Source: Candidatus Omnitrophota bacterium | Lineage (GTDB): Bacteria > Omnitrophota > Omnitrophia > Omnitrophales > Aquincolibacteriaceae | DNA length: 64,000 nt | Assembly (NCBI GenBank): GCA_903884815.1 | Contig: CAISGE010000015.1 | Coordinates: forward strand, 22,958 to 86,957 | Reading direction: 5' to 3' | Shown here: positions 10,234-55,258 of the stretch, in pieces | Layout: each line of letters opens with the position of its first letter | Position numbering within the stretch: the first letter of the stretch is position 1 | Program-made: the position numbers and the translations under genes | The notes under the pieces: generated by a model | What the model was told of the DNA's origin: nothing | Database searches by the model: none | What the model saw: the letters and a program-made list of their open reading frames with translations, nothing else

Positions 10234-10293
10234 AGGGCGGGATTATAGGCAAATCCAGGTCGGGTGTCCAGCAAAGAGGCGGTGCCTGGCCAA

Positions 10294-10404
10294 GCGGGAA
10301 ACGTGGAACCGGGAACGTTGAACGTTTAAAAGGACGGAAAAGGGGACTGTCCCCGTTTTACTTTGTTGATTTGTTTTCCGTTTGTCGTTACCCGTTCCCC
10401 GGTT
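10294..10404. repeat. HPE copy 3 with an embedded terminator-like central hairpin
   Basis: GCGGGAAACG TGGAACC GGGAACG TTGAACG, then AAAAGGGGAC-TGT-CCCCGTTTT, then CCGTTTGTCGTTACCCGTTCCCCGGTT. Confidence 0.7.
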
Positions 10405-10409
10405 TTAAT

Positions 10410-10919
10410 TTAAATTGTGCAGCCTTTCGAGGAGGTTATATCGCCAGGGTTGGCGGGTTCTATCGGTTTGAAGACCATTTGGCATTGCCAATTTATATCA
10501 ACGGAACCATCAAATCCGCCGGAATCATAGCTAACATAATCCCCGGTGTGATCGTTTCTTCCCTCGACCTGGAAGGTAGAGCCAGACACGCTCGCATAGT
10601 ACCGGTACTTCCAATTTTTTGATTTATCAATGCCCGTGAGCCCAAGATCCTGCCAACTCGACTCGTTTTTGTCAAAACCCTCGTCCCAAGGATCCGAACA
10701 AACCTCGAAGACATCTCCCGGGAGTATGTAAGTTCCTTGGAAGTCGTAGTATCTTTCTGCGGCGCGTTTAATGGCGCCGACCATTTGAAGGGCTTCGGCG
10801 GCTTTGGCTTTTTCAGTCTGCATGAGCATGCGGGGTACGATGAGTGACGCCAAAATGGCAATAATGACGACCACGATCAATACTTCAACGAGCGTAAAAC
10901 CTCTCTTCGGATTTTTCAC
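10410..10919 (-). CDS. type IV pilin-like protein (prepilin-type N-terminal cleavage/methylation domain), paralog 1
   Basis: Leader VKNPKRG then FTLVEVLIVVVIIAILASLIVPRM. GTG start with an AGGAG RBS 7 nt upstream. C-terminus ends KGCTI like paralog 6. Confidence 0.75.
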   Translation of the reverse strand: MKNPKRGFTLVEVLIVVVIIAILASLIVPRMLMQTEKAKAAEALQMVGAIKRAAERYYDFQGTYILPGDVFEVCSDPWDEGFDKNESSWQDLGLTGIDKSKNWKYRYYASVSGSTFQVEGRNDHTGDYVSYDSGGFDGSVDINWQCQMVFKPIEPANPGDITSSKGCTI

Positions 10920-37812: not shown

Positions 37813-38334
37813 TTAGATAATCTCGCAGCGAGAAGAATCATTTTTGGCGTAAGTAAAAAGCCCGCTACACATAGCGGAAGTGTTCATGCTACTGGTAATG
37901 GGGTTAAACCAAGTTGAGACGCCCATGTAAGCGTATGCTGGATCACCCCACGGGGCTACGGAATAGAAGGAGAGCCAGCTGGATGTGGAGGAACTGGAAA
38001 AAGAAAAGTTAAAATCGTTGATTTTCTGCATGTCGTTGTTGGAAACCCCCAGGACTAGAAAGTTGCCCGAGCTGGAGCTGCCATGATAAGTCCCGCCCGA
38101 ATCCGTGTACGCCGCAGAATAAGACGCGGAGCCGGAAGTCGGATAGTACCCATGCGCCGTGTAATAGGTTTCAAGGTTGCGTTTCATGATGCCGAATAGC
38201 TGTGTGGGTTCCGCGAGTTTGGCCTTTGCGATTTGGCCGGTCATGCGCGGCACGATCGCTGCGGCGAGAATGGCAATGATGACGAGCACGACCAATACCT
38301 CCACAAGCGTGAAACCCTTCTTCATGTTTTTCAT
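37813..38334 (-). CDS. type IV pilin-like protein, paralog 5
   Basis: MKNMKKG then FTLVEVLVVLVIIAILAAAIVPRM. Track start 38667 is an over-extension; ATG at 38334 follows a GGAG RBS. Confidence 0.75.
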   Translation of the reverse strand: MKNMKKGFTLVEVLVVLVIIAILAAAIVPRMTGQIAKAKLAEPTQLFGIMKRNLETYYTAHGYYPTSGSASYSAAYTDSGGTYHGSSSSGNFLVLGVSNNDMQKINDFNFSFSSSSTSSWLSFYSVAPWGDPAYAYMGVSTWFNPITSSMNTSAMCSGLFTYAKNDSSRCEII

Positions 38335-38617
38335 AGCACTTCTCCTTTCAAAAGAAGACCAGACTGCTCTTCCGATCATCATCGTCAACCACCCGCAATA
38401 ACTATAGCACATATCCGGAGAATGGGGGGGGAGGCGGGTAACGGAATCAAGGGGGTTATTCGGCTCCCCCGGGCCTCGATCCTTCCAGTACCGGACACTC
38501 TCCGGAGTCCCTGGCACTGGAACTTCTTCGGAAGACGGGGTATTGCGAAGGGGGTTATTCCGCATTTCCCGTTTCCCGTTCACCCTTCGTTTCGATTGTG
38601 CTACAATCCCGCTCCTT

Positions 38618-39238
38618 ATGAAGAAAAAACATCCCGCAATCAAAGCCGTGATTTTCGACCTCGGCAACGTGCTTGTGAATTACGACGTCGAAAAGGCGGC
38701 GAAGCGGTTTTCGGCCGCGTCCGGGCTTTCGACTCGTGAGATATGGAAGCGTTTCTTCCTTTCCCGGTTCGAGCAGGCCTTTACGCGTGGCGATATTTCG
38801 ACCCGCGAGTTCCATCGGAGCGCCTGCGAAACGCTCGGCGTTTCCATTCCGCTGAAGGTCTTCAGCCATTACTGGAACGATATCTTCTGGGAGAATCCGG
38901 GGATGGAGAGGCTGCTCGTCCGGATCAAGAAGCATTACCCGCTTTATCTGATCTCAAATACGAACGCTCTTCACTATAACCACATCAAGAAGCATTTTAA
39001 ACTGCTCCGCCATTTCGACCGGAAATTCCCATCGCATGAAGTCGGTGCGCGCAAGCCCGATCTTCGGATCTACCGACGTGTCCTCAAAAAAATCGGTCTC
39101 CGCCCCGAAGAAACCGTTTTTATCGACGACATGAAAAGCTTTATCCTCGGCGCCCGCAAGGTTGGCATGCACGCCATCCGCTTCAAGGGCCGTCTGGCCC
39201 TCCTCAAGTCCCTTCGCAAGCTCGGCATACGTTTTTAA
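38618..39238 (+). CDS. HAD-superfamily hydrolase (subfamily IA)
   Basis: Motif I VIFDLGNV. Motif II LISNT. C-terminal FIDD. Confidence 0.8.
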   Translation: MKKKHPAIKAVIFDLGNVLVNYDVEKAAKRFSAASGLSTREIWKRFFLSRFEQAFTRGDISTREFHRSACETLGVSIPLKVFSHYWNDIFWENPGMERLLVRIKKHYPLYLISNTNALHYNHIKKHFKLLRHFDRKFPSHEVGARKPDLRIYRRVLKKIGLRPEETVFIDDMKSFILGARKVGMHAIRFKGRLALLKSLRKLGIRF

Positions 39239-39334
39239 TCTCTCTCTTCTTTGATAGGGAAAGGTTTCGATCAGAATATAAAATATAATGATAATAATAT
39301 TGATTATAAATGAATTTTGTGGTATTCTTTCGAA

Positions 39335-39859
39335 ATGGAGAGACAGCCGCTGACAACCCAGAAAATAGCCGCCTCGATTTATCTGATCCGGGGATGCAAA
39401 GTTATGTTGGATTCCGACCTGGCGGTCCTCTACGGTGTAGAGACGAAATATCTTAAAAGGCAGGTGAAGCGGAATCTGGAGAGATTTCCTCCAGATTTTT
39501 TGTATCGCTTGACTAAAAAAGAAGTGGCGGCTCTAAGGTGCCAAATTGGCACCTTAGACAGTCCTGGGCGTGGTCAATACAGCAAGTATCTTCCTTATGC
39601 CTTCACGGAGCATGGGATTCTGATGCTCTCCAGCGTCTTGAGTAGCCAGAAGGCCATTCAGGTCAATATCGCGATCATGAGGGTGTTCGCGCGGATCCGG
39701 CAGGTGCTGATTGAAAATAAAGATCTGGCACTACACATGGAAAGGCTGGAGCGCCATGTCGAGCGGCACGGAAAAGATATCCGCTCTCTGTTTGATTTTG
39801 TGGAACGCATCCTCGCGATCGACGAGAAGCCCAAGGGGCCCATTGGTTTTCACCCTTAG
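39335..39859 (+). CDS. ORF6N-domain protein (KilA-N-related, phage/antirepressor-associated domain)
   Basis: IRGCKVMLDSDLAVLYGVETKYLKRQVKRNLERFPPDF matches the ORF6N domain. Preceded by an AT-rich ~80-nt stretch. Confidence 0.65.
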   Translation: MERQPLTTQKIAASIYLIRGCKVMLDSDLAVLYGVETKYLKRQVKRNLERFPPDFLYRLTKKEVAALRCQIGTLDSPGRGQYSKYLPYAFTEHGILMLSSVLSSQKAIQVNIAIMRVFARIRQVLIENKDLALHMERLERHVERHGKDIRSLFDFVERILAIDEKPKGPIGFHP

Positions 39860-40851: not shown

Positions 40852-41397
40852 ATGATACCCACCAACAAGTTTTTGAAGCTTACGGGAATTTTGCTCCTTT
40901 TGGGGGGTGTGGTTCTGGCCAGCGGTTGCGGGCAGGTTGCTTCCGAGAAGGCCCTGGAGGATGGAGCGGTTCTTGAGAAAAATGGAAAGCTTGCCGCGGC
41001 CATGGCCGAATACAACCGAGCGGCCGAGTTGAGTCCCGACAACACGAACGCTTATTATTACCGGGCGATGCTCTATCAAAAGCAAGGGAATCTGGATGCC
41101 GCGCTCGCGGATTATAACAAGATCATTGAGCTTAAGCCCGATTACAGTGATCCTTATTACGGTCGCGGCACTATCTACGACAGTAAGGGACAAAGAGACA
41201 AGGCCATTGCTGAGTACACCAAGGCTCTGGAGAATAATGTCAATAACACCCTGGCTTATTTCAAGCGCGCGAAGGCCTATGAGGCTAAGGGGGAGTACCG
41301 GAAGGCGCTCGAGGACGCTCAAAAAGCCAAGGTGCTTGGAGCTGCTGTAAAGGACGACTTCCTAAGACAACTCGAAGCGGGTGCGGCAGGACGGTGA
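40852..41397 (+). CDS. TPR-repeat lipoprotein
   Basis: Lipobox LLLGGVVLASGC. Four or more TPR units (AYYYRAMLYQKQGNLDAALADYNKIIEL...). Confidence 0.7.
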   Translation: MIPTNKFLKLTGILLLLGGVVLASGCGQVASEKALEDGAVLEKNGKLAAAMAEYNRAAELSPDNTNAYYYRAMLYQKQGNLDAALADYNKIIELKPDYSDPYYGRGTIYDSKGQRDKAIAEYTKALENNVNNTLAYFKRAKAYEAKGEYRKALEDAQKAKVLGAAVKDDFLRQLEAGAAGR

Positions 41398-41454
41398 GCT
41401 AGGGTCCCACCTCATTGTAGAGCGCCCGAGTCTCTCAAGGGGGATGAAGGGCGC

Positions 41455-41526
41455 TGGGGAAGGGGAAACAGCCAACGTGGAACGCCGGGCGGGAAACAAA
41501 TTATTTATCGTCACCCGTTCTCCGAT
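41455..41526. repeat. HPE copy between the TPR gene and pilin paralog 6 (convergent)
   Basis: GGGGAAGG GGAAACA GCCAACG TGGAACG CCGGGCG GGAAAC ... CGTCACCCGTTCTCCG. Confidence 0.6.
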
Positions 41527-41533
41527 ATCAGTT

Positions 41534-42007
41534 TTAAATCGTGCAGCCTTTTGTGGACATGTTAGGATCGCTGTCGGGCTCAACGGCTTTGAATACTTCA
41601 AAGCAAATCCAGATCCCGGAGCCGTTGGCATCCACGTAAGCTAGCCAATTGGTAGCGGTCTCGTCGTACGCTTGGACTGAGAGGTAGCTATGAAAACCAT
41701 AGTACACATATTTCCACGCTTTTGATTTCTCAATACCCGTAAGCCCCAGATCCGCCCAATCGCCCAGAGGAGTCCCCCAAGGGTCCGACTGAATATAAGT
41801 TCCGCTGGGAGCGTCATAACTTCCGTGAAAGTCGTAGTATCTTTCCGCGGCGCGCTTGATGGCGCCGATCATCTGGATAGCCTCGGCGGCTTTTGCTTTT
41901 TCGGTCTGCATGAGCATGCGCGGGACGATAAGCGAGGCGAGGATGGCGATAATAACGACCACGATCAGAACCTCAACGAGGGTGAAGCCCTTTTTTTGAT
42001 TTTTCAC
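41534..42007 (-). CDS. type IV pilin-like protein, paralog 6
   Basis: VKNQKKG then FTLVEVLIVVVIIAILASLIVPRM. GTG start after an AGGAG RBS. Ends KGCTI. Confidence 0.75.
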   Translation of the reverse strand: MKNQKKGFTLVEVLIVVVIIAILASLIVPRMLMQTEKAKAAEAIQMIGAIKRAAERYYDFHGSYDAPSGTYIQSDPWGTPLGDWADLGLTGIEKSKAWKYVYYGFHSYLSVQAYDETATNWLAYVDANGSGIWICFEVFKAVEPDSDPNMSTKGCTI

Positions 42008-42064
42008 AGTTCCTCTCCTTATTCGGGATGATACAGTAACACCTGATATTGCTTCGTCATTCAC

Positions 42065-42105
42065 TTGAAAAAACTATAGCATATATTCGGAGAGTTGGGG
42101 GTGGC
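42065..42105 (-). promoter_or_regulatory. conserved pilin promoter/leader element with extended -10 (TGCTATAGT), copy at paralog 6
   Basis: Gene orientation: CCCCCAACTCTCCGAATATATGCTATAGTTTTTTCAA. Near-identical elements at ~10977, 24092, 36640, 37565 and 38385. Confidence 0.5.
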
Positions 42106-42198
42106 AGCGAAGCGGGAGCTGAAAGCATTGACGGTAAGGGGGGGAGCGGTTAAAATACGGCCGCTTTTAAAACCATCACCCATTAAGGAGAAATAAAA

Positions 42199-42510
42199 AT
42201 GGCTTATGTTATTACAGAGAAATGCCACGGCGAACGTTACGGTCTTTGCGCCGGGGTTTGCCCCGTCGAAGCGATCTTCCCGGGGACTTATCAGGGGAAA
42301 GATTTCATGGTGATCGATCCGGCGCTTTGTATTTCCTGCGGCGCGTGCGCGGCGGAATGTCCCGTGGGCTCGATCGTTGAGTCTGAAGATATGGATGCGG
42401 CCTACGCCAAGATCAACGCCGAACTTGCTGACAAGTTCCGGTCCAATCCCAAGGTGACGCCTCGCTCGAAGGATGAGGCCCCCAAGAAAGCCGGAAATAC
42501 GCTGAAATAA
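42199..42510 (+). CDS. 2x[4Fe-4S] ferredoxin
   Basis: CAGVCPVEA and CISCGACAAECP. 103 aa. Confidence 0.8.
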   Translation: MAYVITEKCHGERYGLCAGVCPVEAIFPGTYQGKDFMVIDPALCISCGACAAECPVGSIVESEDMDAAYAKINAELADKFRSNPKVTPRSKDEAPKKAGNTLK

Positions 42511-42609
42511 AAAAATACGTTGGAGTATTCCTTGCTTGCCTCCCCCGGGACCCGGGGGAGGCAAGCTTGTCTTTGAAGGTTCATCACCGTTATCGATAAG
42601 GAACTCGAG

Positions 42610-43197
42610 ATGTCCTCCGCTTCCGGCTGCAAAGATCCCACCATCCTGGAACAGGCTCTCAAGGAATATGCCGCAGATCTTGCCGCCGAGAACTCCGCCA
42701 TCCGGGTCGTGATGCGAGGCTTGTCTTTGGTCGGAATCGGCATTCGCCCTGTCTTGGACCACCTGATCTTCCGCACTGTTCACCTCAAGGAAAGAGCGCG
42801 TGAATTTATGGAGTTGGGGTATGAGAGGGATCTTACGGCCAAAGTTCTTGAGCATCGGGGACACGGCGTCGAGGTCCTTCGGCGAGGATGCGCGCCGGCG
42901 ATCCTGGTTGAACATCCCCGTGAAAAGGCTGGATTAGATTGGGTGTCCCATTTCGGGGATAAAACCCCCTATGTGATGGCCATTCGGGTGGACGATATCG
43001 AAGATGCGGCGTTCCATCTAGAGAAGCAGGCGGTGGCTTTTTTAAGGCCTCCGGCCGGGAAACACGGGGACATTCTTCGTGAGATCGCCACAGTTCCCAA
43101 TATGAAGGACGCCCGTCCCGCAAGTTATCTTGTTTTGGTCGAACGGCACGCCGGCGATTCGCGTTTTTACGCGCCGGATTTTTGGATCAACGCTTAA
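42610..43197 (+). CDS. hypothetical protein, VOC/glyoxalase-like fold suspected
   Basis: DHLIFRT...YVMAIRVDDIEDAAFHL resembles VOC beta-alpha-beta-beta-beta modules. Weak. Confidence 0.35.
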   Translation: MSSASGCKDPTILEQALKEYAADLAAENSAIRVVMRGLSLVGIGIRPVLDHLIFRTVHLKERAREFMELGYERDLTAKVLEHRGHGVEVLRRGCAPAILVEHPREKAGLDWVSHFGDKTPYVMAIRVDDIEDAAFHLEKQAVAFLRPPAGKHGDILREIATVPNMKDARPASYLVLVERHAGDSRFYAPDFWINA

Positions 43198-43215
43198 GGT
43201 TTCAAGGGGTACATC

Positions 43216-44217
43216 ATGATCATCGGACTGACAGGGAAGAATGGATCCGGAAAAGGGGAGGTCGCGGCTTTTCTGAAAGATCGCGGTTTTCACTATTACT
43301 CGCTCTCCGACGCGATACGAGATGAGGCCAAGAAACGCGGGCTGGAGATCACGCGCGATGTGCTCATCGCTCTGGGCAACGAGCTCCGTGAAAAAGAAGG
43401 ACCGGGCTCCCTGGCCGAGCGCATCTTCGCGAAATTGGATCCTGAAAAACACTATGTGATCGATTCCATCCGCCATCCTTCCGAGATCCAGGCTTTTCGT
43501 CGCCGTAATGATTTCACGCTCTTTCGCGTCTATGCTCCCGAAAGGTTGCGCTTTGAGCGTCTCAAGCAGCGCGGCCGCGAGAACGACCCCAAGGTGTGGG
43601 AAGATTTTCTGGCGCTTGAGGCCAAGGAAGCCAAAAGCGAAAGTAAAACCGACCAGCAACTCGATCAGGCGATCGCGCTCGCCGACATTCAGATCGATAA
43701 CAACGGTCCTCTGAAAGATATCCATGAGAAAGTAAAGAAGATCCTCCTGGAGCTTTCCCAAAAGGCGCCGCGGCCGGGTTGGGACGAATATTTCATGAAT
43801 ATCGCGAAGGTCGTGGCGATGCGCTCCAATTGCATGAAGCGGCGTATTGCGGCGGTGATCGTGAAGGACAAGCGCATCATCTCGACCGGCTACAACGGAA
43901 CGCCCCGCGGGATCAAGAACTGCAGCGACGGCGGCTGTCCGCGCTGCAACGCGATCGACGCGTCCGGCAAGGATCTCGGAGAATGCCTTTGCTCGCATGG
44001 GGAGGAGAACGCGATCGTGCAGGCGGCCTATCACGGTGTGAGTCTCAAGGGCGCCACGCTTTATACGACTTTTTCACCCTGTCTCATGTGCACCAAGATG
44101 ATCATCAATGCCGGGATTGCCGAATTGGTTTACCAGGGGAATTACCCCTTCCTGGAGCTTTCTCTCAAACTGCTTGAGCAGGCCAGTGTGACGGTCCGCA
44201 AGATCCCTTCCTCCTGA
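43216..44217 (+). CDS. fusion protein: N-terminal P-loop nucleotide kinase domain + C-terminal dCMP/cytidine deaminase domain
   Basis: Walker A GLTGKNGSGKGE. Deaminase zinc motifs CSHGEENAI (H/C-A-E) and PCLMC. Confidence 0.7.
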   Translation: MIIGLTGKNGSGKGEVAAFLKDRGFHYYSLSDAIRDEAKKRGLEITRDVLIALGNELREKEGPGSLAERIFAKLDPEKHYVIDSIRHPSEIQAFRRRNDFTLFRVYAPERLRFERLKQRGRENDPKVWEDFLALEAKEAKSESKTDQQLDQAIALADIQIDNNGPLKDIHEKVKKILLELSQKAPRPGWDEYFMNIAKVVAMRSNCMKRRIAAVIVKDKRIISTGYNGTPRGIKNCSDGGCPRCNAIDASGKDLGECLCSHGEENAIVQAAYHGVSLKGATLYTTFSPCLMCTKMIINAGIAELVYQGNYPFLELSLKLLEQASVTVRKIPSS

Positions 44218-44228
44218 CAGGAACCCCC

Positions 44229-45395
44229 ATGACCCTTCCCGAAAAGATCGTTCGCGCAAGTTTCGGGCTCAAGGGCATCGTTCAGCACCAACTCGATCAG
44301 AGCTATCACAGCCCTCTCATCGACAAGATCCGCGCTGAAGGATTTTCGATGAAGATGGGCCGCCTTGAGATCCATCTCGCGAAGGAATTCGGATTTTGTT
44401 ACGGCGTGGAACGCGCGGTGCAGTATGCCTACGAAACGCGGGCGCGTTTTCCTGATCGCCGTATCTTTCTCACCAATGAGATCATCCACAACCCCCGTGT
44501 GAACGCAGAGCTTCAGGGAATGGGCGTCCAGATCCTAAAGGATGACGCCTCCCATGCCGGGATCACGGAAAAGGATGTGGTGATCATGCCGGCCTTTGGC
44601 GTTACGGTCGAGGCGCTGCGGGAATTCCAGAAAAAGAACTGCGTCATCGTGGACACCACCTGCGGGTCGGTGATGAGCGTCTGGCGCCGGGTGGAGGCCT
44701 ACAGCGGTGACGGTTTCACCTCTGTCATTCACGGGAAATACGATCACGAGGAGACGCGGGCGACTTGTTCGCGGGCGGCGAAATATGTGGTGGTGAAGGA
44801 TAAAGCGCAGGCGGAGTTAGTTTGCCAAACGATCAAGGGGCTCGTCGCTCGGGGCTCATTCCTTGAAAGCTTCAAAGATGCCTGCTCGCCGGATTTTGAT
44901 CCGGACAAGGATCTCGGAAAGATCGGTTTCGCGAATCAGACGACGATGCTTTCGCGCGAATCGATCGAGATCTCGGATCTTCTTCGCGCCGCGCTCCGGG
45001 CCCGCTACGGCGAGACCGGGCTTGAGTCTCGTTTTCGCCATTTTGATACGATCTGCTCGGCAACGCAGGACCGGCAGGACGCCATTCGCGAACTCGGCGA
45101 GAAGCATATGGATGTGATCCTTGTGATCGGCGGTTACCGGTCGAGCAATACCGGGCATCTGGTCGAGCTTGCCTCCGAGTTCTGCCCTGCCTTTCATGTT
45201 GAAGACGCATCCTCGCTCATTTCAAGTGACAAGATCCGGCACAAGAAGACGGGGGCGCAGGATATTCTCGAGACCGTGAGTTGGCTTCAGAAAAAGGGGA
45301 TGGACCCACTCAGGGTCGGCGTCACCGCCGGGGCGTCCACGCCGAACCGGGTGGTTGAGGAAGTTATCCAGCGCCTGATCGACATTGCGAACTGA
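44229..45395 (+). CDS. ispH: 4-hydroxy-3-methylbut-2-enyl diphosphate reductase
   Basis: GFCYGVERAV, IIHN, DTTCGSV, NQTTM, ICSATQDRQ, SSNTGHL, GVTAGASTP blocks. Confidence 0.85.
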   Translation: MTLPEKIVRASFGLKGIVQHQLDQSYHSPLIDKIRAEGFSMKMGRLEIHLAKEFGFCYGVERAVQYAYETRARFPDRRIFLTNEIIHNPRVNAELQGMGVQILKDDASHAGITEKDVVIMPAFGVTVEALREFQKKNCVIVDTTCGSVMSVWRRVEAYSGDGFTSVIHGKYDHEETRATCSRAAKYVVVKDKAQAELVCQTIKGLVARGSFLESFKDACSPDFDPDKDLGKIGFANQTTMLSRESIEISDLLRAALRARYGETGLESRFRHFDTICSATQDRQDAIRELGEKHMDVILVIGGYRSSNTGHLVELASEFCPAFHVEDASSLISSDKIRHKKTGAQDILETVSWLQKKGMDPLRVGVTAGASTPNRVVEEVIQRLIDIAN

Positions 45396-45416
45396 ATAGA
45401 CCTCTCGGAGAACCCC

Positions 45417-45962
45417 ATGGCACTCATTGAACTTATGCAGAGAAGGCGGAGCGTTCGGAGATATTCGGCCCGGCCGGTATCGCGCGAAGATGTTCTGAAA
45501 TGCCTGGAAGCGGCGCGGCTTGCCCCGTCGGCGTGCAATTCCCAGCCGTGGCATTTTATCGTGATCGATGAACCGGCGCTTAAAGACCGTATCTCGGAAC
45601 GGATCTTTTCCGGTCTTTATTCGATGAATAAATTCGCTGGAGAAGCGCCGGTGCTCGTTGCGGTGGTCTCGGAAAAAGAGAATTTTCTTGCTTCGTTCGG
45701 AGGGCAGGTCCGGGACACGAGTTATTGCCTCGTGGATATCGGTATCGCCTGCGAGCATTTCATCCTGCAAGCTCAAGAGCTTGGAATCGGCAGCTGCTGG
45801 ATCGGCTGGTTTGATGAAGGGGCTTTAAAAAAGGAGCTCAAAATTCCCAAGAATAAAAAGATCGATATCGTAATCTCGCTGGGCTACCCCGCGGAGGATA
45901 AGATCGTGCCCAAACAGAGGCGATCCACAGAAGAGATGAGCTCTTTCAATAAGTATCGTTAG
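45417..45962 (+). CDS. nitroreductase-family protein
   Basis: RRSVRRY...APSACNSQPWHFIVI motif. Confidence 0.8.
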   Translation: MALIELMQRRRSVRRYSARPVSREDVLKCLEAARLAPSACNSQPWHFIVIDEPALKDRISERIFSGLYSMNKFAGEAPVLVAVVSEKENFLASFGGQVRDTSYCLVDIGIACEHFILQAQELGIGSCWIGWFDEGALKKELKIPKNKKIDIVISLGYPAEDKIVPKQRRSTEEMSSFNKYR

Positions 45963-45985
45963 TCATTTTTAAAAAGGAGAAATTT

Positions 45986-46198
45986 GTGAAAAAAAAGATG
46001 ATTTATTTTTTCTTGGTTCTTTTCGTTTTGGTTTTGGTCGGGACGCCGGTGCTTTTTGCCAAAGGAGATGATTCCTTGATCTCCGAAGAGGGATCGGGAC
46101 CTACGCTTGACCCAGGCACCGGTGGTTGGATCTTCAAGCCCTGCGGGAGTGGTGGTCGATCAGGACGATACGGGGGAAGCAGATCCTTCGGCTTTTGA
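45986..46198 (+). CDS. small secreted Gly-rich peptide (frame uncertain after residue ~50)
   Basis: Signal peptide MKKKMIYFFLVLFVLVLVGTPVLFA. An alternative acidic frame continues to 46289. Confidence 0.3.
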   Translation: MKKKMIYFFLVLFVLVLVGTPVLFAKGDDSLISEEGSGPTLDPGTGGWIFKPCGSGGRSGRYGGSRSFGF

Positions 46199-46308
46199 AG
46201 GCGATTCAGGAGCAACCCCTGGGGAACGGGCTCCGGAGGAGGTTCCGATGTCGGATTCGCCCGTCGATGCCGGAATGGCCGTTCGGTAGAATTTAATTAC
46301 AAGGGACA

Positions 46309-46354
46309 AAAAAAGGGGGACAGGCATTAAGTGACTGCTTGTCCCCTTTTTTTT
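46309..46354. terminator. bidirectional rho-independent terminator (GGGGACAGGCA family; inverted copy of the 28069 hairpin)
   Basis: A7 GGGGGACAGGCATTAAGTGACTGCTTGTCCCC T8. Its loop is the reverse complement of the 28069 loop. Abuts the efp stop. Confidence 0.75.
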
Positions 46355-46925
46355 AAGCGCGGCCGTCAACTTCTCCGGTTTCAGTGTTGACGCGCAGCAC
46401 TGTTCCGATGTCGGCATAAAGAGGTGCGTTGACTTCCATTCCGGTCTCGAGAGTTGCCTTTTTGGTCGAGCGGCCTGAGATCGAAGCTCCTTTGAGCGAA
46501 GGATCGGTTTCCGTGATGGCAAGCTCCACATAGACTGGAAGTTCCAGGGAAACGACGGTCCCGTTAAGTTTCAGCGCCAGCATTTCCTGATTTTCTTTCA
46601 GATAGAGCTTTTGTTCCCCGAGTTTCTCCGCCGTTAGCATGAACTCCTCGTAGGCGACGTTGTCCATGAAGTGATATTCATTCCCGGTGATGTATTGGAA
46701 TACGGCCGGGACTTTCTCCACGTCGGGCACATTGAATTTTTCGCTCGTCTTGAAGGTTTTGTCGAGCACTGCGCCATTCAGCAGATTCCGGACCTTGGCC
46801 TTGCACATGGTGGAGGCTCCCCGCGCCGAGGGTGTCGCGAAGGTGACATCGATGACGTAAAAAGGCTGTCCGTCGACTTCAATGTAAAGTTTCTTTTCCA
46901 GTTCGTTGGCCGAGATCTGCGCCAT
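46353..46925 (-). CDS. efp: elongation factor P
   Basis: About 190 aa, three beta-domains. KAKVRNLLNGAVLDKTF block. Start trimmed to MAQISANEL. Confidence 0.9.
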   Translation of the reverse strand: MAQISANELEKKLYIEVDGQPFYVIDVTFATPSARGASTMCKAKVRNLLNGAVLDKTFKTSEKFNVPDVEKVPAVFQYITGNEYHFMDNVAYEEFMLTAEKLGEQKLYLKENQEMLALKLNGTVVSLELPVYVELAITETDPSLKGASISGRSTKKATLETGMEVNAPLYADIGTVLRVNTETGEVDGRA

Positions 46926-47348: not shown

Positions 47349-47546
47349 ATGGAACAGAAAATTATGAAAAACAGAAAAACGCAGATCGAAGCAAGCAATG
47401 GAAGCTACAACCCGGAAATGTTTCCTTGCCGCTCAGGGGACGCCGCGAAAAAATATCTGACGAACTCATCTCTTAGCTGGAGCCCCGCAAACGCATCCGC
47501 CGTTTCGGGGCAATTCAAATTCTCAAAGGGGGCTCGAAAAAAATGA
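47349..47546 (+). CDS. small basic ORF (65 aa) translationally coupled (ATGA) to the giant gene; may not be real
   Basis: MEQKIMKNRKTQIEASNGSYNPEMF... Stop overlaps the start of the 1394-aa gene. AT-rich codon usage. Confidence 0.25.
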   Translation: MEQKIMKNRKTQIEASNGSYNPEMFPCRSGDAAKKYLTNSSLSWSPANASAVSGQFKFSKGARKK

Positions 47547-50500
47547 AGACCATCCAGGCAAATAAAGTCATCGCGATCACGGTCGCGCTCAGTCTGGCAT
47601 TTTTCCAGATCGTCCCTGCCGGACTTGCCGCGGGGAAGACTAATCCCAGCGATTTGACTGCCCAGACGGGTGTGTCCGGTTCCGTTGATCCACTGGCCAA
47701 AACACAGGTGACGACACCGGCCGTGATTCCCGCCAATTTTTTGATGCACACAGGAGGGATTACTAAGGCGACCCCAACGACGATCCCGACGGCTGCCACC
47801 GTTGCCACGAATCTGTCGAGCAGGATCCCGGCTACGATCCGGGATTATGTCACGAAAGTTCAGGCCTTAGGATTCAAGGTAGAGGTAAGCGCGATCGCTA
47901 AAACTCAACCTCCGCAATATATCGTCAAGATGACTGATACGAAAAACTATGCCGTCACGCCGGTGGGGAACGTGAAAAGCGCCAGCATCACTCTGTTTGC
48001 CGACAGCACAGGGACTCTGCAGGTCCTTACGGAAAAGATCACCGTGACTTGCTACAGCGCCAAAGGCGGAGACACCCAGGTGAATGGCGAGCTTCTCTAT
48101 GAGGGCCTCCGGCAAATATCGGCCCAGCCCGCGTTCACCATGCTTCAGGTCAAAGTATCCAATAGCACAACCTCGGGCATGATGGTGACTTACCAGGGCT
48201 ATCAATACACGATCCAGCAGAGCAAGGACAAAAAGGTCACGACGGTCACTCCGATGATGCCCCTCGCCGTGACGAATCATATTACCTCGCTTCAGAATGC
48301 TGCGACCGGTTATACCGTGACCGCGGCTTACATCCCGGGGACTCATCCGCCGCAGTACCAGGTCGATGTCTCGGATAACAAGGCGTACTATGTTGCCCCG
48401 GTAGGGCCACTTTATGCGATGAGCTATATCCTCAGAGGCGACGGAATCGTGGACTCGAAATCCGTTTCGGCTGCGTATTACGGAATCCAGGATGACGCGA
48501 AAGTCGTCGGCCCGCTGCTTTACGAGGCGATGGGCGTCTGCCCCGAGGGACAGATATGCAAGATGGTGGCGACGAGTCCGATCGACCTTCTGAAGACACT
48601 GACGACGATCAGCGTTACAAAGGTCGAGACAAGCCCGATCTACACGGTCCATTTCACAACCACAGACGGAAAGTATTACAAGACCTACCGCGACGCGGCC
48701 GGGAAAGTGATCGTGATTGATGAAGTGGAGGCTTTACGCGCCCAGATTATGGCAAGCACCACGGCGGAGATCGTAAAGGTCATGGCCGAGCTCGCGGATC
48801 ATGAGGCAAAGCTTGCGCTTCAGCTTGCGGAATGGGAAAAGAATGTCACCCAACTGAAAGCGGATCTTGCGGCGGGGCGGGGGAACGCGGACGCAATCAG
48901 CGGGGCGGTCACGAGCTATCTGGATCAGGCAGGCGTCAGCGATGCTCTGAAAAATGAGATTCAGGGATATCTGACAAGGAGCGGAAGCTTGCTTGACGGG
49001 CTTAATGCCGCTGAAGAACAGTACGCGGCCTTTTTGAAGACGGGGGCCCGGACGACCGGGCTCGCGATAGACAACGCGAAGGCCTATCTTGCGGCTCTCC
49101 AGAATCACGAGGGGAAGGTCTCGGCCGCAAAAACAACCGAGGAATTAGCGTTGCTGACAGACCTGCCCGCCCGGAGGGCGCGGATGCCCAAAACAGTGAT
49201 GCCTCCTCCGGTGGAGGACCCGCGACTTGCTCTGAATGCGCTCGTCGAGGAAGGGAAGCTGTTAAAAGAAAAGCTGGAGGCCCTTCCGCCTCTCGCGGTC
49301 CGGGTGTTTTCGGCCCAGCTGAATACACTGCTGAACCCGGCCGGTGCAAAGAGCTTCAATATCACGGAACCGGCATTGCAGGCTGACGGGACTTATCTCG
49401 TAACCGTCAGCGACGACATTTCTCACTTGATCACGCCAACAAGTGGTTTTGAGAAAATGAGTTTCAACGTTGACGTGACGGGCAAGCTCATCCCCGCTTC
49501 GCTCGATGCTTCCTATTACGGCATCAAGCAAGTGGTCGACGGACAGCTGCTTTATGAAGGGATGAAGCTTATGGAAGAAACAGGAACCCCGGAGGGTGCG
49601 GAGGTCCGTGTCCTGGCCCGGATGGCGGCAGTCAGTGTCATCGCGGTGGTTGGTGACGCGATCTCTTTTTCTCTGACTGGAAAATATTACAAAATTTTCC
49701 GAGATGCGAATGAGCAGGTGAAGCTTGAAGCGGTGCAGACTCCGGTTACCCCGAAAATCTCTGATCAGCCCACTGGAAATCCAGAGCCGCCTCCCGCTCC
49801 GCCCGAGAGTAGTGTGGATGTTGCCACGATGCCTTTTGGGGACGGGGCAGTGGCGATCGTCAAGATCACCGATTTCCCAAGCAACAATGTTTCTTATTTC
49901 GCGAAGATCAGGGACACGAATGGCGTGGTGATCAAACAATATCAGATCGATCGCGGGGACTATACGCCTTCCGTCAGTAATTCTTCTTACGGAACTTATT
50001 ACACCTTGGCATTCAAAACCGTGGATGGAACCAGGGTCACGGTCCAACAGCTCTCAACAAGCACACCGAGCAGCACCATCGATGAAATGACCGTCGTCAA
50101 TTTCACAGGGATCGGGGATGTGTACGTCACGCAAAGTTATTCGCTCTCCCCTCAAGGACAGTGGGTCGAAACCTCTTACTCCCCAAGTTATTTTAAGACA
50201 GAAAGTGTCTGGAGTTCCAGATATAGCAGTTTGGTAAGCGTGCAATCGACTTACGTCATGGGGCCCAACGGTCTCGTCGTGAGGAACAAGAGCATCTATC
50301 CTTATTCCTATCCGGGCGGTGTTTTCACGTATCCGTTTATTCAGGAGATTACCTATGTGAATGGAGTCGCAGCCCGCGCCTCTATTTACGGATCGAATGC
50401 AACTTCGCCGGCCAATTACCTTTATTTCGACGGGTCGAAGGTCTCCGTGACCCTGGCAAGCGGTGCGCGGCAAGACTATCTCCTGAGTTCGCCGTCCATA

Positions 50501-51727
50501 GTGGAGGATTCCGAAGGTTTTGTGACGATCTCCGCGGACACAACGGTGAACGGCAAGAATTACAAGATTCAATTTGATAATGCCGGCGAGATTACGCTTT
50601 ACGAATACCCGGTTTTCGGGATTTCGGCATCCACCAAGCTCGGAGGAGCGGCCAATCTTTGGGTGAATGTCGGCGGGGATGGGAACGCAACCGTAGTCCT
50701 GGACGGCAACACCTACGCAGGGATCTTTGATCCGGTCACTAGATCGGTCTTTCTCTCCATCCCCGTCACTGGTGATGTACCCGCGCGCGAAATTTTCTTT
50801 GATTTCGAGAATGTGGACGGCGTGTACAGTCTGGTTTCTCTCTGGGATGCGACACTTTATTCAGCTTCCCTTGAAAGTGATCATGTTTATATGTTTAGGA
50901 GGGGTGAGGTGGTCCAGACGGTAGAGACGGAGGAATATTATTGGTACTTGTACACAAACAGCGTCCTGGAAGGCCAAGTTCTCCCATTGGGCGCGTATAA
51001 GTATGTGGATTCGATCACAGGCCGGAATGTATCCGGATCCATATTGTTGGTAAGTTCCGGAGACATCGCGCTGCCCCCCCCGACACTTCCCGATCAGGAG
51101 AACCTCCAGATCGTTCCGGACCCCTCGGGAGAAGGCTACCAGATCGAAGGGTCGGGTGTCATGGCCGGAGAGTCTTACGAGATCACGGGCCACGCCAGCG
51201 GAACGGATCCGGAAATGATCGGTATCCTGCTGACTTTTCGAGATGCCCAGGGACGTGTTGATCGGGAGGTCATGGAAATGCGAAGGCGAAGTGATGCGTC
51301 ATCCGAAGTGAACTATAATGAGATAATTTACTCGTTACCTACGGATATGACTTTCGAAGCAAGGCCCGCGACTGTCCCTTCCCCTGGCACAATTTCCCAG
51401 GATTATTCCGGAAATGTGCCTGTGTCAACCTGCGCTATATGTACGATTTCCACCGAAATACACGTCGCGGGCGGCTTTTGGGATCCCGTGGATGACTCAG
51501 TGCCAAAACATTCGAGACTTCCGTTTGGGATGCGTAATCCTCTTACCCCGGAACAAAGGCGTGCGGGCCGGGAAGAGTTTTACAAACTGCCCCTCAGAGT
51601 AGTGGCCGGACCTGTCGTCACCGTTGTCGAAGCCTGTCAAGCCGTAAAATCCGGATATAAACAAGCTGCATCGTTTTTTATGAGTGTATTGAAAGAAGCT
51701 GTGCAGAGCCCCACGCTCATTCCCTAA
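47543..51727 (+). CDS. giant secreted protein (1394 aa) with a novel ~90-aa module repeated three times, a central coiled coil, and Ser/Thr/Tyr-rich beta C-terminal half
   Basis: Signal peptide MKTIQANKVIAITVALSLAFFQIVPAGLAA. Repeat signature PPQY...YYG...G.LLYEGM at aa ~101-190, 247-330 and ~585-671. AAGGGGG RBS. Confidence 0.7.
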   Translation: MKTIQANKVIAITVALSLAFFQIVPAGLAAGKTNPSDLTAQTGVSGSVDPLAKTQVTTPAVIPANFLMHTGGITKATPTTIPTAATVATNLSSRIPATIRDYVTKVQALGFKVEVSAIAKTQPPQYIVKMTDTKNYAVTPVGNVKSASITLFADSTGTLQVLTEKITVTCYSAKGGDTQVNGELLYEGLRQISAQPAFTMLQVKVSNSTTSGMMVTYQGYQYTIQQSKDKKVTTVTPMMPLAVTNHITSLQNAATGYTVTAAYIPGTHPPQYQVDVSDNKAYYVAPVGPLYAMSYILRGDGIVDSKSVSAAYYGIQDDAKVVGPLLYEAMGVCPEGQICKMVATSPIDLLKTLTTISVTKVETSPIYTVHFTTTDGKYYKTYRDAAGKVIVIDEVEALRAQIMASTTAEIVKVMAELADHEAKLALQLAEWEKNVTQLKADLAAGRGNADAISGAVTSYLDQAGVSDALKNEIQGYLTRSGSLLDGLNAAEEQYAAFLKTGARTTGLAIDNAKAYLAALQNHEGKVSAAKTTEELALLTDLPARRARMPKTVMPPPVEDPRLALNALVEEGKLLKEKLEALPPLAVRVFSAQLNTLLNPAGAKSFNITEPALQADGTYLVTVSDDISHLITPTSGFEKMSFNVDVTGKLIPASLDASYYGIKQVVDGQLLYEGMKLMEETGTPEGAEVRVLARMAAVSVIAVVGDAISFSLTGKYYKIFRDANEQVKLEAVQTPVTPKISDQPTGNPEPPPAPPESSVDVATMPFGDGAVAIVKITDFPSNNVSYFAKIRDTNGVVIKQYQIDRGDYTPSVSNSSYGTYYTLAFKTVDGTRVTVQQLSTSTPSSTIDEMTVVNFTGIGDVYVTQSYSLSPQGQWVETSYSPSYFKTESVWSSRYSSLVSVQSTYVMGPNGLVVRNKSIYPYSYPGGVFTYPFIQEITYVNGVAARASIYGSNATSPANYLYFDGSKVSVTLASGARQDYLLSSPSIVEDSEGFVTISADTTVNGKNYKIQFDNAGEITLYEYPVFGISASTKLGGAANLWVNVGGDGNATVVLDGNTYAGIFDPVTRSVFLSIPVTGDVPAREIFFDFENVDGVYSLVSLWDATLYSASLESDHVYMFRRGEVVQTVETEEYYWYLYTNSVLEGQVLPLGAYKYVDSITGRNVSGSILLVSSGDIALPPPTLPDQENLQIVPDPSGEGYQIEGSGVMAGESYEITGHASGTDPEMIGILLTFRDAQGRVDREVMEMRRRSDASSEVNYNEIIYSLPTDMTFEARPATVPSPGTISQDYSGNVPVSTCAICTISTEIHVAGGFWDPVDDSVPKHSRLPFGMRNPLTPEQRRAGREEFYKLPLRVVAGPVVTVVEACQAVKSGYKQAASFFMSVLKEAVQSPTLIP

Positions 51728-55145: not shown

Positions 55146-55258
55146 GAAAGTCCGTTTCCCTATGTTGAGAGATTCGAATTTTATCATGAGGCAAAGATCC
55201 GCGGGGGAAAACAATTTTTTCAGAATAAACCTCTCGATGGGGTAGAATCCATGGGCGC

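Follow-up and report, generated by a model that had tools for sequence, protein, structure and literature searches.

The 333-amino-acid (aa) fusion protein described here joins an N-terminal P-loop kinase-like domain to a C-terminal zinc deaminase domain. It is most likely a housekeeping two-domain dCMP deaminase of the kind seen as Dcd1 in fungi. It appears to be the regular enzyme by which the organism produces dUMP, the thymidine precursor, and is related only remotely to the anti-phage dCTP deaminases that it resembles. The original prediction had left the choice between a housekeeping fusion and an embedded nucleotide-depletion defense gene; curated score thresholds, sequence motifs, domain trees, gene order, and phyletic distribution strongly favor the former and speak against the latter.

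The gene and its genomic neighborhood

The gene was analyzed within a 64-kb window, meaning the whole stretch of DNA under study. Its open reading frame (ORF), those of its neighbors, the spacers on either side (18 nt from the preceding 195-aa ORF and 11 nt to ispH), and the motifs GLTGKNGSGKGE, HGEENAI, and PCLMC were as originally reported when checked against the ORF list and translations, and the two proposed domains, kinase-like and zinc deaminase, were borne out by Pfam, AlphaFold2, and Foldseek (Table 1). The existence of more than 120 clusters of full-length homologues (66 to 100% identity) establishes the 333-aa gene as real, and its AlphaFold2 model has a pLDDT of 92. Two long antisense ORFs (43042-44034 and 42061-42915, both on the minus strand) were set aside as mechanical by-products.

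Table 1. Positions of the fusion gene, its domains and motifs, and the neighboring features in the window
Feature	Position	Strand	Evidence
2x[4Fe-4S] ferredoxin	42199..42510	+	Pfam; conserved upstream in Omnitrophota
Terminator-like hairpin, strong (15 bp, 12 G-C pairs, then T-rich tail)	42534..42566	+	Pattern match only
VOC-fold protein, 195 aa (glyoxalase/methylmalonyl-CoA epimerase/HPPD-like)	42610..43197	+	AlphaFold2, Foldseek
Two-domain protein, 333 aa (P-loop kinase-like + dCMP deaminase)	43216..44217	+	ORF, Pfam, AlphaFold2, Foldseek, homologues
N-terminal P-loop nucleotide-kinase-like domain, residues 1-170	43216..43725	+	Family alignment, profile matches, Foldseek
P-loop GLTGKNGSGKGE, residues 4-15	43225-43260	+	
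C-terminal zinc dCMP deaminase domain, residues 186-333	43771..44214	+	PF00383, PDB match, Foldseek, motif conservation
Allosteric-type motif GYNG (G225-Y226-N227-G228) of the deaminase domain	43888-43899	+	
Cys cluster C236/C241/C244/C257/C259 of the deaminase domain	43921-43992	+	
Catalytic H261-G-E263 of the deaminase domain (within HGEENAI, residues 261-267)	43996-44004	+	
Zinc-ligand motif P288-C289-L-M-C292 of the deaminase domain	44077-44091	+	
ispH (4-hydroxy-3-methylbut-2-enyl diphosphate reductase)	44229..45395	+	NF009911, 504.6 bits vs 440 cutoff
Nitroreductase-family gene, last of the tightly spaced run	45417..45962	+	Pfam

The 195-aa ORF preceding the fusion gene had been called VOC-like, and this holds at the level of the fold. 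Its AlphaFold2 model (pLDDT 88) has the paired beta-alpha-beta-beta-beta modules of the VOC superfamily and matches methylmalonyl-CoA epimerase, glyoxalase I, and HPPD in Foldseek (E = 2.5e-7 to 1e-5; TM 0.5 to 0.7). The ORF has no match in Pfam, NCBIfam, PADLOC, or PHROGs; its 123 homologues all come from Omnitrophota-type sources, and a few of them carry PF13669 or PF14696. The VOC-fold gene is mostly, but not always, found upstream of the fusion gene (it is absent from locus L005). Translational coupling of the two genes, which had also been proposed, finds no support: they do not overlap, and in orthologous loci they lie anywhere from about 12 nt to 1.6 kb apart, with gaps that can hold other genes or repeat arrays.

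The fusion gene is probably cotranscribed with the VOC-fold gene, ispH, and the nitroreductase gene, and the terminator-like hairpin is probably the upstream limit of this transcription unit. The ferredoxin gene, which the original prediction had placed in the tightly packed run, probably lies outside this unit, since the hairpin falls within the 99 nt between it and the 195-aa ORF. In Omnitrophota, the gene lies in a fixed block ordered HAD, M48 peptidase, ferredoxin, VOC, fusion, ispH. The only neighbor kept beside the fusion gene in all closely related Omnitrophota loci is ispH, a linkage for which we know of no functional reason; the nitroreductase gene is kept only in the closest relatives (L013 to L015). 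The window as a whole encodes core metabolism and has a uniform base composition. Neither mobile or defense genes nor thyA/thyX, dut, dcd, cmk, coaE, or a second dCMP deaminase gene were found within it.

The C-terminal half is a dCMP deaminase domain with an intact allosteric motif

Residues 189 to 306 matched dCMP_cyt_deam_1 (PF00383) with 90.7 bits (cutoff, 25). The C-terminal half is 33% identical to solved dCMP deaminases (PDB 2hvv, E = 3e-23) and 66 to 70% identical to true stand-alone dCMP deaminases of Victivallales, and its model superimposes on 2hvw, 4p9c, 1vq2, and 5c2o with TM values of 0.85 to 0.90 (Foldseek). The fusion has the classical features of a dCMP deaminase, namely, HxE, PCxxC, G(Y/W)N(A/G), the fold, and PF00383. 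The residues H261, E263, C289, and C292 are each at least 90% conserved in the family alignment; within GYNG, G225 never varies and the conservation of Y226 and G228 is 90% or more, and the catalytic and allosteric motifs are intact and kept across 42 full-length homologues. The score against the ComEB equivalog TIGR02571 was 118.7 bits, below the cutoff of 219.45, indicating that the fusion is a member of the dCMP deaminase family and not a strict ComEB orthologue. Two fungal dCMP deaminases (P0218 and P0228) are collinear with the fusion from residue 1 or 2 to residue 329 or 330, at 33 to 34% identity.

From these motifs, the substrate would be dCMP rather than dCTP. A zinc-bound water in the C-terminal domain, with H261, C289, and C292 as the zinc ligands and E263 as the proton shuttle, would convert dCMP by deamination into dUMP, from which thymidylate is made. 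G(Y/W)N(A/G) has been described as the allosteric site of DCTD (PMC12088426). [quoted passage not shown]

The fusion is vertically inherited and widespread

In Omnitrophota the fusion is vertically inherited. It diverges in step with IspH (r = 0.95), and across the Omnitrophota loci its conservation exceeds that of IspH by 10 identity points on average. Proteins of the ~330-aa form are found in at least 10 phyla, including Acidobacteriota (complete chromosomes), Myxococcota, Bacteroidales, and DPANN archaea. Outside Omnitrophota the gene adjoins those for PurE, acyl-CoA dehydrogenase, aIF5B, diphthamide synthase, and RlmN; in the loci sampled (the window and about 80 related loci), it was never found beside mobile or defense genes. 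Among 2.9 million viral contigs, the fusion was almost absent, and no full-length copy was found.

The N-terminal half resembles nucleoside monophosphate kinases

Residues 1 to 130 matched AAA_18/AAA_17 in Pfam. The profile of the fusion family matched UPF0200/SSO1041 with an E value of 1e-32, compared to 6e-10 for CoaE, 1e-8 for AK1, and 1e-6 for UMP kinase, and the model of the N-terminal half matched the Sulfolobus adenylate-kinase-related protein 3lw7 with a TM value of 0.86 (Foldseek). The PHROGs family phrog_139, "deoxynucleoside monophosphate kinase," also matched the domain (E = 4.6e-22); NCBIfam PRK08356 gave 71 bits (cutoff, 189). In one locus (L088), the kinase-like and deaminase halves are encoded by two genes lying side by side, an arrangement that speaks for a functional partnership between the modules. 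We propose that the most likely ligand of the P-loop domain is a (deoxy)pyrimidine nucleotide, which the domain may also phosphorylate, and that it would couple the supply or partitioning of dCMP to deamination.

A glycine follows the P-loop lysine (GKGE), which we first took for a degenerate Walker A motif. This idea was dropped, since adenylate-kinase-type P-loops (GxxGxGKGT) normally have a glycine after the lysine and the Gly-Lys pair of the family is invariant.

A plausible, though not favored, alternative is that the kinase-like domain has no catalytic activity and serves for regulation or oligomerization, binding dCTP or dTTP without phosphate transfer, so that the protein would be a monofunctional dCMP deaminase with a sensor domain. 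The residue after the P-loop lysine and the Walker B-like position D83 are indeed variable in the family, fungal members show deletion or divergence over much of the NMP-binding segment, and four annotated defensive relatives need the domain although their P-loops lack the canonical Gly-Lys. On the other hand, G12-K13 is invariant in the fusion family, prokaryotic members keep the NMP- and LID-type arginines R58, R112, and R115 with at least 90% conservation, a glycine after the lysine is normal for P-loops of this type, and the closest solved structure, 3lw7, binds AMP.

The fusion lies outside the anti-phage dCTP deaminases

The original prediction was correct that the kinase-deaminase architecture is common to defensive dCTP deaminases: both halves are homologous to those of the defensive enzymes and stand in the identical order, and residues 1 to 311 align to positions 155 to 490 of the PADLOC dCTPase profile (E = 5.9e-62, 208 bits). 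NF041025 is the top NCBIfam match by E value, and the anti-phage models are the best NCBIfam and PADLOC matches by this measure, which speaks against a housekeeping function; moreover, the defensive enzymes require both domains. One could thus suppose that the fusion serves as an embedded defense gene, an anti-phage enzyme of the AvcD/DcdV type or that of Tal et al. that deaminates dCTP and dCMP on infection and starves phage DNA synthesis.

Several lines of evidence make such a role improbable. With NF041025, the fusion scored 157.4 bits against a cutoff of 400 bits, compared to 421 to 504 bits for four annotated defensive proteins; with PADLOC dCTPase, the same four reached 527 to 604 bits against its 208. 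The housekeeping fungal Dcd1 also matches both models, at 93 to 121 bits (NF041025, 93 to 98). Identity between the fusion and the defensive proteins is just 24 to 28%, and its 333 aa fall under the inclusion rule of >350 aa of Tal et al. Neither the ~45-aa insertion that would follow the GYNG position nor the extensions at the N and C termini are present, and GYNG and HGEENA stand in place of the defensive G[RTA]N[DE] and HAEM[DE]. The allosteric motif that is kept in the fusion is lost in the defensive enzymes, and DcdV has been described as having no allosteric site.

The trees of both domains group the defensive sequences in a clade of their own (100% bootstrap support), which excludes the fusion. 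The deaminase domain of the fusion clusters with stand-alone and housekeeping dCMP deaminases and not with the defensive ones, one half of a pair of findings that the original prediction had named as evidence against a defensive role (the other being that this is the only dCMP deaminase of the genome). The distribution is conserved and vertical, not sparse, and there is no defense island or mobile-element context in the window or the about 80 related loci. No similarity was seen between the VOC-like ORF and the small genes beside the defensive deaminases of three plasmids (L009, L010, and L012). An AvcI-like RNA upstream of the fusion gene was also considered and rejected: the gap of 18 nt is too small for it, a conserved protein-coding gene precedes, and an Rfam search of 41300-46400 gave no match, although AvcI may be outside Rfam. 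On the strength of the curated score cutoffs, size, motifs, trees, and context, we rejected the defense-gene reading in favor of the housekeeping dCMP deaminase.

Tandem repeats upstream of some orthologues

Tandem repeat arrays were observed just upstream of the fusion orthologue in three independent lineages of about 80 (65 nt by 3 to 4.7 copies in L002-4/L095, 107 nt by 3.2 copies in L005, and 39 nt by 3 copies in L036). The repeat units of the three lineages are mutually unrelated and weakly structured (z = -2.1, -1.0, and 0.0), and L005 has arrays in two other intergenic gaps as well, between the fusion gene and ispH and at the ispH 3' end. Their 5' position recalls the antitoxin arrays of type III systems and would fit a defensive role. 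However, arrays are absent from most loci, the window included, and their restriction to three lineages, unrelated units, weak structure, and presence in other gaps of L005 led us to reject them as antitoxin arrays.

Other readings of the kinase-like domain

Very unlikely, in our view, is a broader proposal in which the short kinase-deaminase, fixed in the chromosome and passed on vertically, is an effector of nucleotide pools with a switch to depletion of dC nucleotides. It would then represent the housekeeping ancestor or a dual-use form of AvcD-type defense, with the kinase-like domain as the switch and the 5' repeat arrays as type III-like RNA regulators in some lineages. In a milder version, the N-domain could be an active dNMP kinase and the fusion a branch-point enzyme splitting dCMP between the dCTP and dTTP pools.

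That the N-terminal half is a dephospho-CoA kinase (CoaE) that became joined to a dCMP deaminase by chance, as stated in several annotations of metagenome-assembled genomes (MAGs) and as the NCBI name of some fusion orthologues ("dephospho-CoA kinase") would have it, is hardly credible: its P-loop GLTGxxGSGK resembles that of CoaE and there are weak matches to PF01121 (24.9 bits) and TIGR00152 (26.8 bits), but these scores stay below the cutoffs (27 and 65.55 bits, respectively), both models align just the first ~92 residues, UPF0200/SSO1041 matches far better in E value and in structure (TM 0.86, versus about 0.6), PHROGs assigns the domain to dNMP kinases, and the retention of the fusion in at least 10 phyla and in fungi, together with the adjacent pair in L088, argues for a functional link to the deaminase rather than chance. 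We therefore rejected a CoaE identity, which the original prediction had offered as a second way in which a defensive role might fail, and the MAG annotations are probably wrong.

Implications for annotation and comparison with known systems

The main value of these results is a caution for annotation. The ~330-aa fusions form a large, vertically inherited family in at least 10 bacterial and archaeal phyla, and with their very significant E values for PADLOC dCTPase and NF041025, they could be miscalled as anti-phage if score and architecture thresholds are ignored. A simple discriminator is the combination of GYNG, HAEEN, and the Cys cluster on the side of the short family and of G[RTA]N[DE], the insertion, HAEM[D/E], and the C-terminal extension on the defensive side. 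The defensive enzymes likely derive from housekeeping proteins of this short family, which also draws attention to a conserved P-loop domain that is common with yeast Dcd1.

The closest counterparts in architecture are fungal enzymes of the Dcd1 type (Scheffersomyces spartinae XP_043046972.1 and Didymella KAJ4367964.1; Saccharomyces cerevisiae DCD1 family). They share with the fusion the domain arrangement and the length class (~320 to 370 aa), an N-terminal module starting M-[IL]-I-G-x-x-G-x-x-x-x-G-K, and a C-terminal DCTD domain with GYNG, the C..GGCxRC..CxC cluster, HAEEN, and PCxxC. They differ in that the segment "SLSDxxRxE...GNELR," conserved in prokaryotic members, is lost or diverged in the fungal N-domains; they are eukaryotic genes and form their own clade in the domain trees.

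The stand-alone dCMP deaminases (ComEB, Streptococcus mutans 2HVW, T4 Cd 1VQ2, cyanophage S-TIM5 4P9C, and human DCTD 2W4L) have the fold of the C-terminal half (TM 0.72 to 0.90) and the same catalytic and allosteric motifs, but they lack the N-terminal kinase-like domain. For that domain, the best full-length matches in both sequence and structure are the archaeal UPF0200/SSO1041 (PDB 3H0K and 3LW7) and the phage dNMP kinases (phrog_139), which, unlike the fusion, are stand-alone proteins with a physiological substrate that is unknown or different.

The defensive enzymes of the AvcD/DcdV type have the zinc deaminase catalytic motifs, as does the fusion. They are proteins of 499 to 576 aa, extended at both termini, in which a degenerate G[RTA]N[DE] is followed by a ~45-aa insertion; they have HAEM[DE] for HAEEN, no Cys cluster, and, in the four examined, noncanonical P-loops. 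Their genes are sparsely distributed and adjoin relaxases, IS elements, and other defense genes, and AvcID is controlled by a 5' noncoding RNA (AvcI/DifV). The protein in the window shares neither their size, extensions, insertion, motifs, and P-loops nor their mobile context and noncoding RNA control.

RESULTS

The 333-amino-acid protein was predicted to join a P-loop kinase-like domain to a zinc deaminase domain, and the ORF map, Pfam, AlphaFold2, and Foldseek all bear this out, with ORF positions and spacers exactly as originally described. In Pfam, the generic P-loop kinase models AAA_18 and AAA_17 fall on residues 1 to 130 and dCMP_cyt_deam_1 falls on residues 189 to 306 (90.7 bits). The AlphaFold2 model, based on an alignment of 42 homologues, is confident (pLDDT 92.2, pTM 0.70); Foldseek matched its C-terminal half to solved dCMP deaminases (S. 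mutans, T4, cyanophage S-TIM5, and human; TM 0.72 to 0.90) and its N-terminal half to the Sulfolobus adenylate-kinase-related protein SSO1041/UPF0200 (TM 0.86), with dephospho-CoA kinases far below (TM about 0.6). Sequence and profile comparison with solved structures found no two-domain structure for the fusion.

Coordinates of the features discussed (positions in the window unless a fetched locus, L, from another genome or metagenome is named)
Feature	Location	Strand	Remarks
ORF6N-domain gene	39317-39859	+	
N_methyl gene	37813-38667	-	
N_methyl gene	41534-42064	-	
Further N_methyl genes	about 35.7 to 38.7 kb		several
Ferredoxin	42199-42510	+	
Terminator-like hairpin	42534-42566	+	GCTTGCCTCCCCCGGG-ACC-CGGGGGAGGCAAGC
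195-aa VOC-like ORF	42610-43197	+	
333-aa fusion	43216-44217	+	18-nt spacer after 195-aa ORF
ispH	44229-45395	+	11-nt spacer after fusion
Nitroreductase	45417-45962	+	
Antisense ORF	42061-42915	-	284 aa
Antisense ORF	43042-44034	-	330 aa
1394-aa ORF	47543-51727	+	
932-aa ORF	52416-55214	-	
Defensive dCTP deaminases	L009:2905-4404; L010:2890-4590; L011:2929-4446; L012:2704-4329		plasmids
Adjoining half-ORFs	L088:8001-8567; L088:8570-9040		kinase-like, 188 aa; deaminase, 156 aa
Array, 65 nt x 3-4.7	L002:9706-9946; L003:9641-9946; L004:1555-1801		5' of orthologue
Array, 65 nt x 3-4.7	L095:~10268-10435	-	5' of orthologue
Array, 107 nt x 3.2	L005:7593-7933		5' of orthologue
Array, 39 nt x 3	L036:3067-3186		5' of orthologue
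Array, 27 nt x 5.1	L005:9140-9277		between fusion and ispH
Array, 60 nt x 2	L005:10745-10867		3' end of ispH

Two identities had been offered for the N-terminal half, dephospho-CoA kinase and dNMP kinase-like. The latter is favored by PHROGs, which assigns this half to "deoxynucleoside monophosphate kinase" (E = 4.6e-22); CoaE is sub-threshold in Pfam (24.9 bits versus 27). With the family profile as query, UPF0200/SSO1041 comes first (E = 1e-32), followed by CoaE (6e-10), adenylate kinase 1 (1e-8), and UMP kinase (1e-6). Given these better matches, the CoaE identity found in some MAG annotations is unjustified. In family alignments, G12-K13 never varies, and conservation reaches at least 90% at R58, R112, and R115. 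A glycine following the P-loop lysine is normal in adenylate-kinase-type P-loops. Because of the intact Gly-Lys, the conserved arginines, and the kinase-family matches, the N-terminal half appears able to bind nucleotides and possibly to transfer phosphate.

The suggested likeness to defensive dCTP deaminases is real at the level of resemblance: the fusion matches the PADLOC dCTPase model (E = 5.9e-62, 208 bits), and its top NCBIfam match is NF041025, the "anti-phage dCTP deaminase" equivalog, although its 157 bits fall short of the curated cutoff (400). For calibration, four annotated defensive proteins of 499 to 566 amino acids were taken from plasmids (E. coli, Pseudosulfitobacter, Vibrio nigripulchritudo, and Rhizobium), where they adjoin relaxases, IS elements, and multiubiquitin-type genes. 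These score 527 to 604 bits with dCTPase and 421 to 504 bits with NF041025, whereas fungal housekeeping dCMP deaminases score 110 to 121 and 93 to 98 bits, respectively; the window protein is 24 to 28% identical to the defensive four. We therefore read its significant E-value as a mark of common ancestry of both domains, not of family membership. Tal et al. characterize the defensive family by kinase and deaminase domains, a length of >350 amino acids, a defence-island score of >0.33, and sparse distribution (10.1101/2021.04.26.441389); the window protein has one of these four features, the two domains.

Alignments cleanly divide the window protein, its prokaryotic ∼330-amino-acid relatives, fungal Dcd1, and stand-alone dCMP deaminases (housekeeping type) from the four defensive proteins. 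The former carry G-Y-N-G at the allosteric site, H-[AG]-E-E-N-A in the catalytic helix, a cysteine cluster (C236...C241xxC244...C257xC259), and no terminal extensions; the latter have G-[RTA]-N-[DE] followed by an ∼45-amino-acid insertion, H-A-E-M-[DE], no such cluster, and extensions of 20 to 35 (N-terminal) and 60 to 100 (C-terminal) amino acids. In the P-loop, where stand-alone deaminases have no kinase domain to compare, Gly-Lys is invariant among the fusions, whereas the P-loop-like segments of all four defensive proteins (GSGVKT, GAGSGT, GTELTA, and GAGGSR) lack a canonical Gly-Lys-[Ser/Thr]. A published account identifies G(Y/W)N(A/G) as the hallmark of the dCTP/dTTP allosteric site in classical dCMP deaminases (PMC12088426); according to its authors, DcdV has no such site and is regulated instead through a noncoding RNA, which is encoded 5' of its gene (10.1101/2021.03.31.437871). 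Neighbor-joining trees of each domain, small, midpoint rooted, and thus indicative only, set the defensive proteins apart as a clade with 100% bootstrap and grouped the window protein with short fusions, stand-alone dCMP deaminases, and the clade holding fungal Dcd1.

More than 120 homologue clusters were listed (331 to 368 amino acids, 66 to 100% identity), mostly labelled Omnitrophica/Omnitrophota. Loci with 66 to 89% identical orthologues share a block of HAD hydrolase, M48 peptidase, ferredoxin, VOC-like ORF, fusion, and ispH, of which the L005 lineage retains only fusion and ispH. Across ten orthologous Omnitrophota loci, fusion identity correlates with IspH identity (r = 0.95), and mean conservation of the fusion lies 10 points above that of IspH, an essential enzyme. 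The full block also occurs in L007/L008 (GCA_035495615.1, labelled "Verrucomicrobiae bacterium"), the taxonomic label of which may be wrong.

A scan of GTDB species representatives returned 594 relatives; full-length ∼330-amino-acid copies among the best 80 came from Acidobacteriota (two on complete chromosomes), Myxococcota, Gemmatimonadota, Planctomycetota, Spirochaetaceae, Sumerlaeota, Bacteroidales, Micrarchaeota, Woesearchaeota, and Pacearchaeota. Outside Omnitrophota, the neighbors are housekeeping genes that differ by lineage: Bacteroidales have PurE immediately upstream, Acidobacteriota have acyl-CoA dehydrogenase, Micrarchaeota have aIF5B and diphthamide synthase, and further sampled loci have RlmN and LOG. 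No mobile or defence genes stood beside these relatives in the loci sampled. Annotated fungal dCMP deaminases (Scheffersomyces and Didymella) are distant full-length relatives (33 to 34% identity over residues 1 to 330), so that in fungi the architecture is the ordinary housekeeping form; PLK+DCD homologues in archaea and Ascomycota were already known to the DcdV authors (10.1101/2021.03.31.437871). Stand-alone dCMP deaminases of ∼150 to 160 amino acids in Victivallales/rumen MAGs (L079, L080, L083, L089, L091, and L092) are 66 to 70% identical to the C-terminal half, closer than most full-length fusions of other phyla; one from Victivallales is a true stand-alone enzyme (159 amino acids, 69%). 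In L088, a MAG locus labelled Gemmatimonadota, the halves are separate ORFs 2 nt apart, the deaminase half being 71% identical to that of the window, and reflect either a true split gene or a frameshift/assembly error. Among 2.9 million viral contigs there were seven relatives and no full-length copy. The rest of the window encodes functions in core metabolism and information processing (including nuo genes, NUDIX, ThiC, ispG, GreA, Era, PFK, EF-P, HrcA-GrpE-DnaJ, and GpsA) with even base composition. Both its spread and its surroundings indicate that the fusion is a housekeeping gene passed down vertically.

The 195-amino-acid protein had no match in Pfam, NCBIfam, PADLOC, or PHROGs; its 123 homologues come solely from Omnitrophota-type sources, a few with weak Glyoxalase_4/5 labels. 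Since its AlphaFold2 model (pLDDT 88) resembles VOC proteins of the methylmalonyl-CoA epimerase, glyoxalase I, and HPPD types (E about 1e-7), the description "VOC-like" holds. The proposed translational coupling to the fusion does not: there is no overlap between stop and start codon, and in orthologous loci the spacing varies between about 12 nt and 1.6 kb, at times with intervening genes. The ORF is absent from L005 and unrelated to the small genes flanking plasmid defensive dCTP deaminases. Judging from spacing, VOC-like ORF, fusion, ispH, and nitroreductase likely form a transcription unit, which probably starts with the VOC-like ORF because a strong, 15-bp G+C-rich terminator-like hairpin lies 3' of ferredoxin. 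Two antisense ORFs overlapping the fusion and VOC-like gene show no sign of being genes; similar ones occur in related loci.

In three independent lineages, the space just 5' of the orthologue contains a tandem repeat array, within 55 to 190 nt upstream. Such arrays recall type III antitoxin arrays and are the main reason why a regulatory or defence-linked role, with the arrays as antitoxin-like regulators, is still given a low probability. Copy number differs among samples, arrays of this kind total just 18 in 1.14 Mb of fetched loci, and an exact search of the whole metagenome collection found the L002 unit at the orthologous site only. The arrays are, however, missing from the window and most loci examined, and their units are mutually unrelated and weakly structured. 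Also against that role, the 17-kb L005 locus has arrays in two other nearby intergenic gaps; all three of its arrays flank fusion and ispH. We consider the arrays probably incidental. The 107-nt L005 unit contains a hairpin (CCTCCCCCG...CGGGGGAGG) similar to that 3' of ferredoxin.

Elsewhere in the window, a lone gene with an ORF6N domain, common in phage/antirepressor-type proteins, is inserted between HAD hydrolase and M48 peptidase, two genes that directly adjoin in relatives (for example, L002, L007, and L015). Type IV pilin-like N-terminal methylation motifs (KKGFTLVEVL...; Pfam N_methyl) occur in many small genes amid housekeeping genes, one directly upstream of ferredoxin. The 1394-amino-acid ORF has a signal-like N-terminal segment and no Pfam family on record; the 932-amino-acid ORF has no Pfam-A match, and the collection lists SGL_GH162 for the corresponding gene call.

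DISCUSSION

Of the two options originally left standing, a housekeeping fusion or an embedded defence gene, scores, motifs, trees, and context favor the former and speak against the latter. By its sequence, the fusion is predicted to be a housekeeping Dcd1-type two-domain dCMP deaminase. It would add a prokaryotic member to an already known kind of enzyme. It is sister to the anti-phage dCTP deaminases and stands outside that family.
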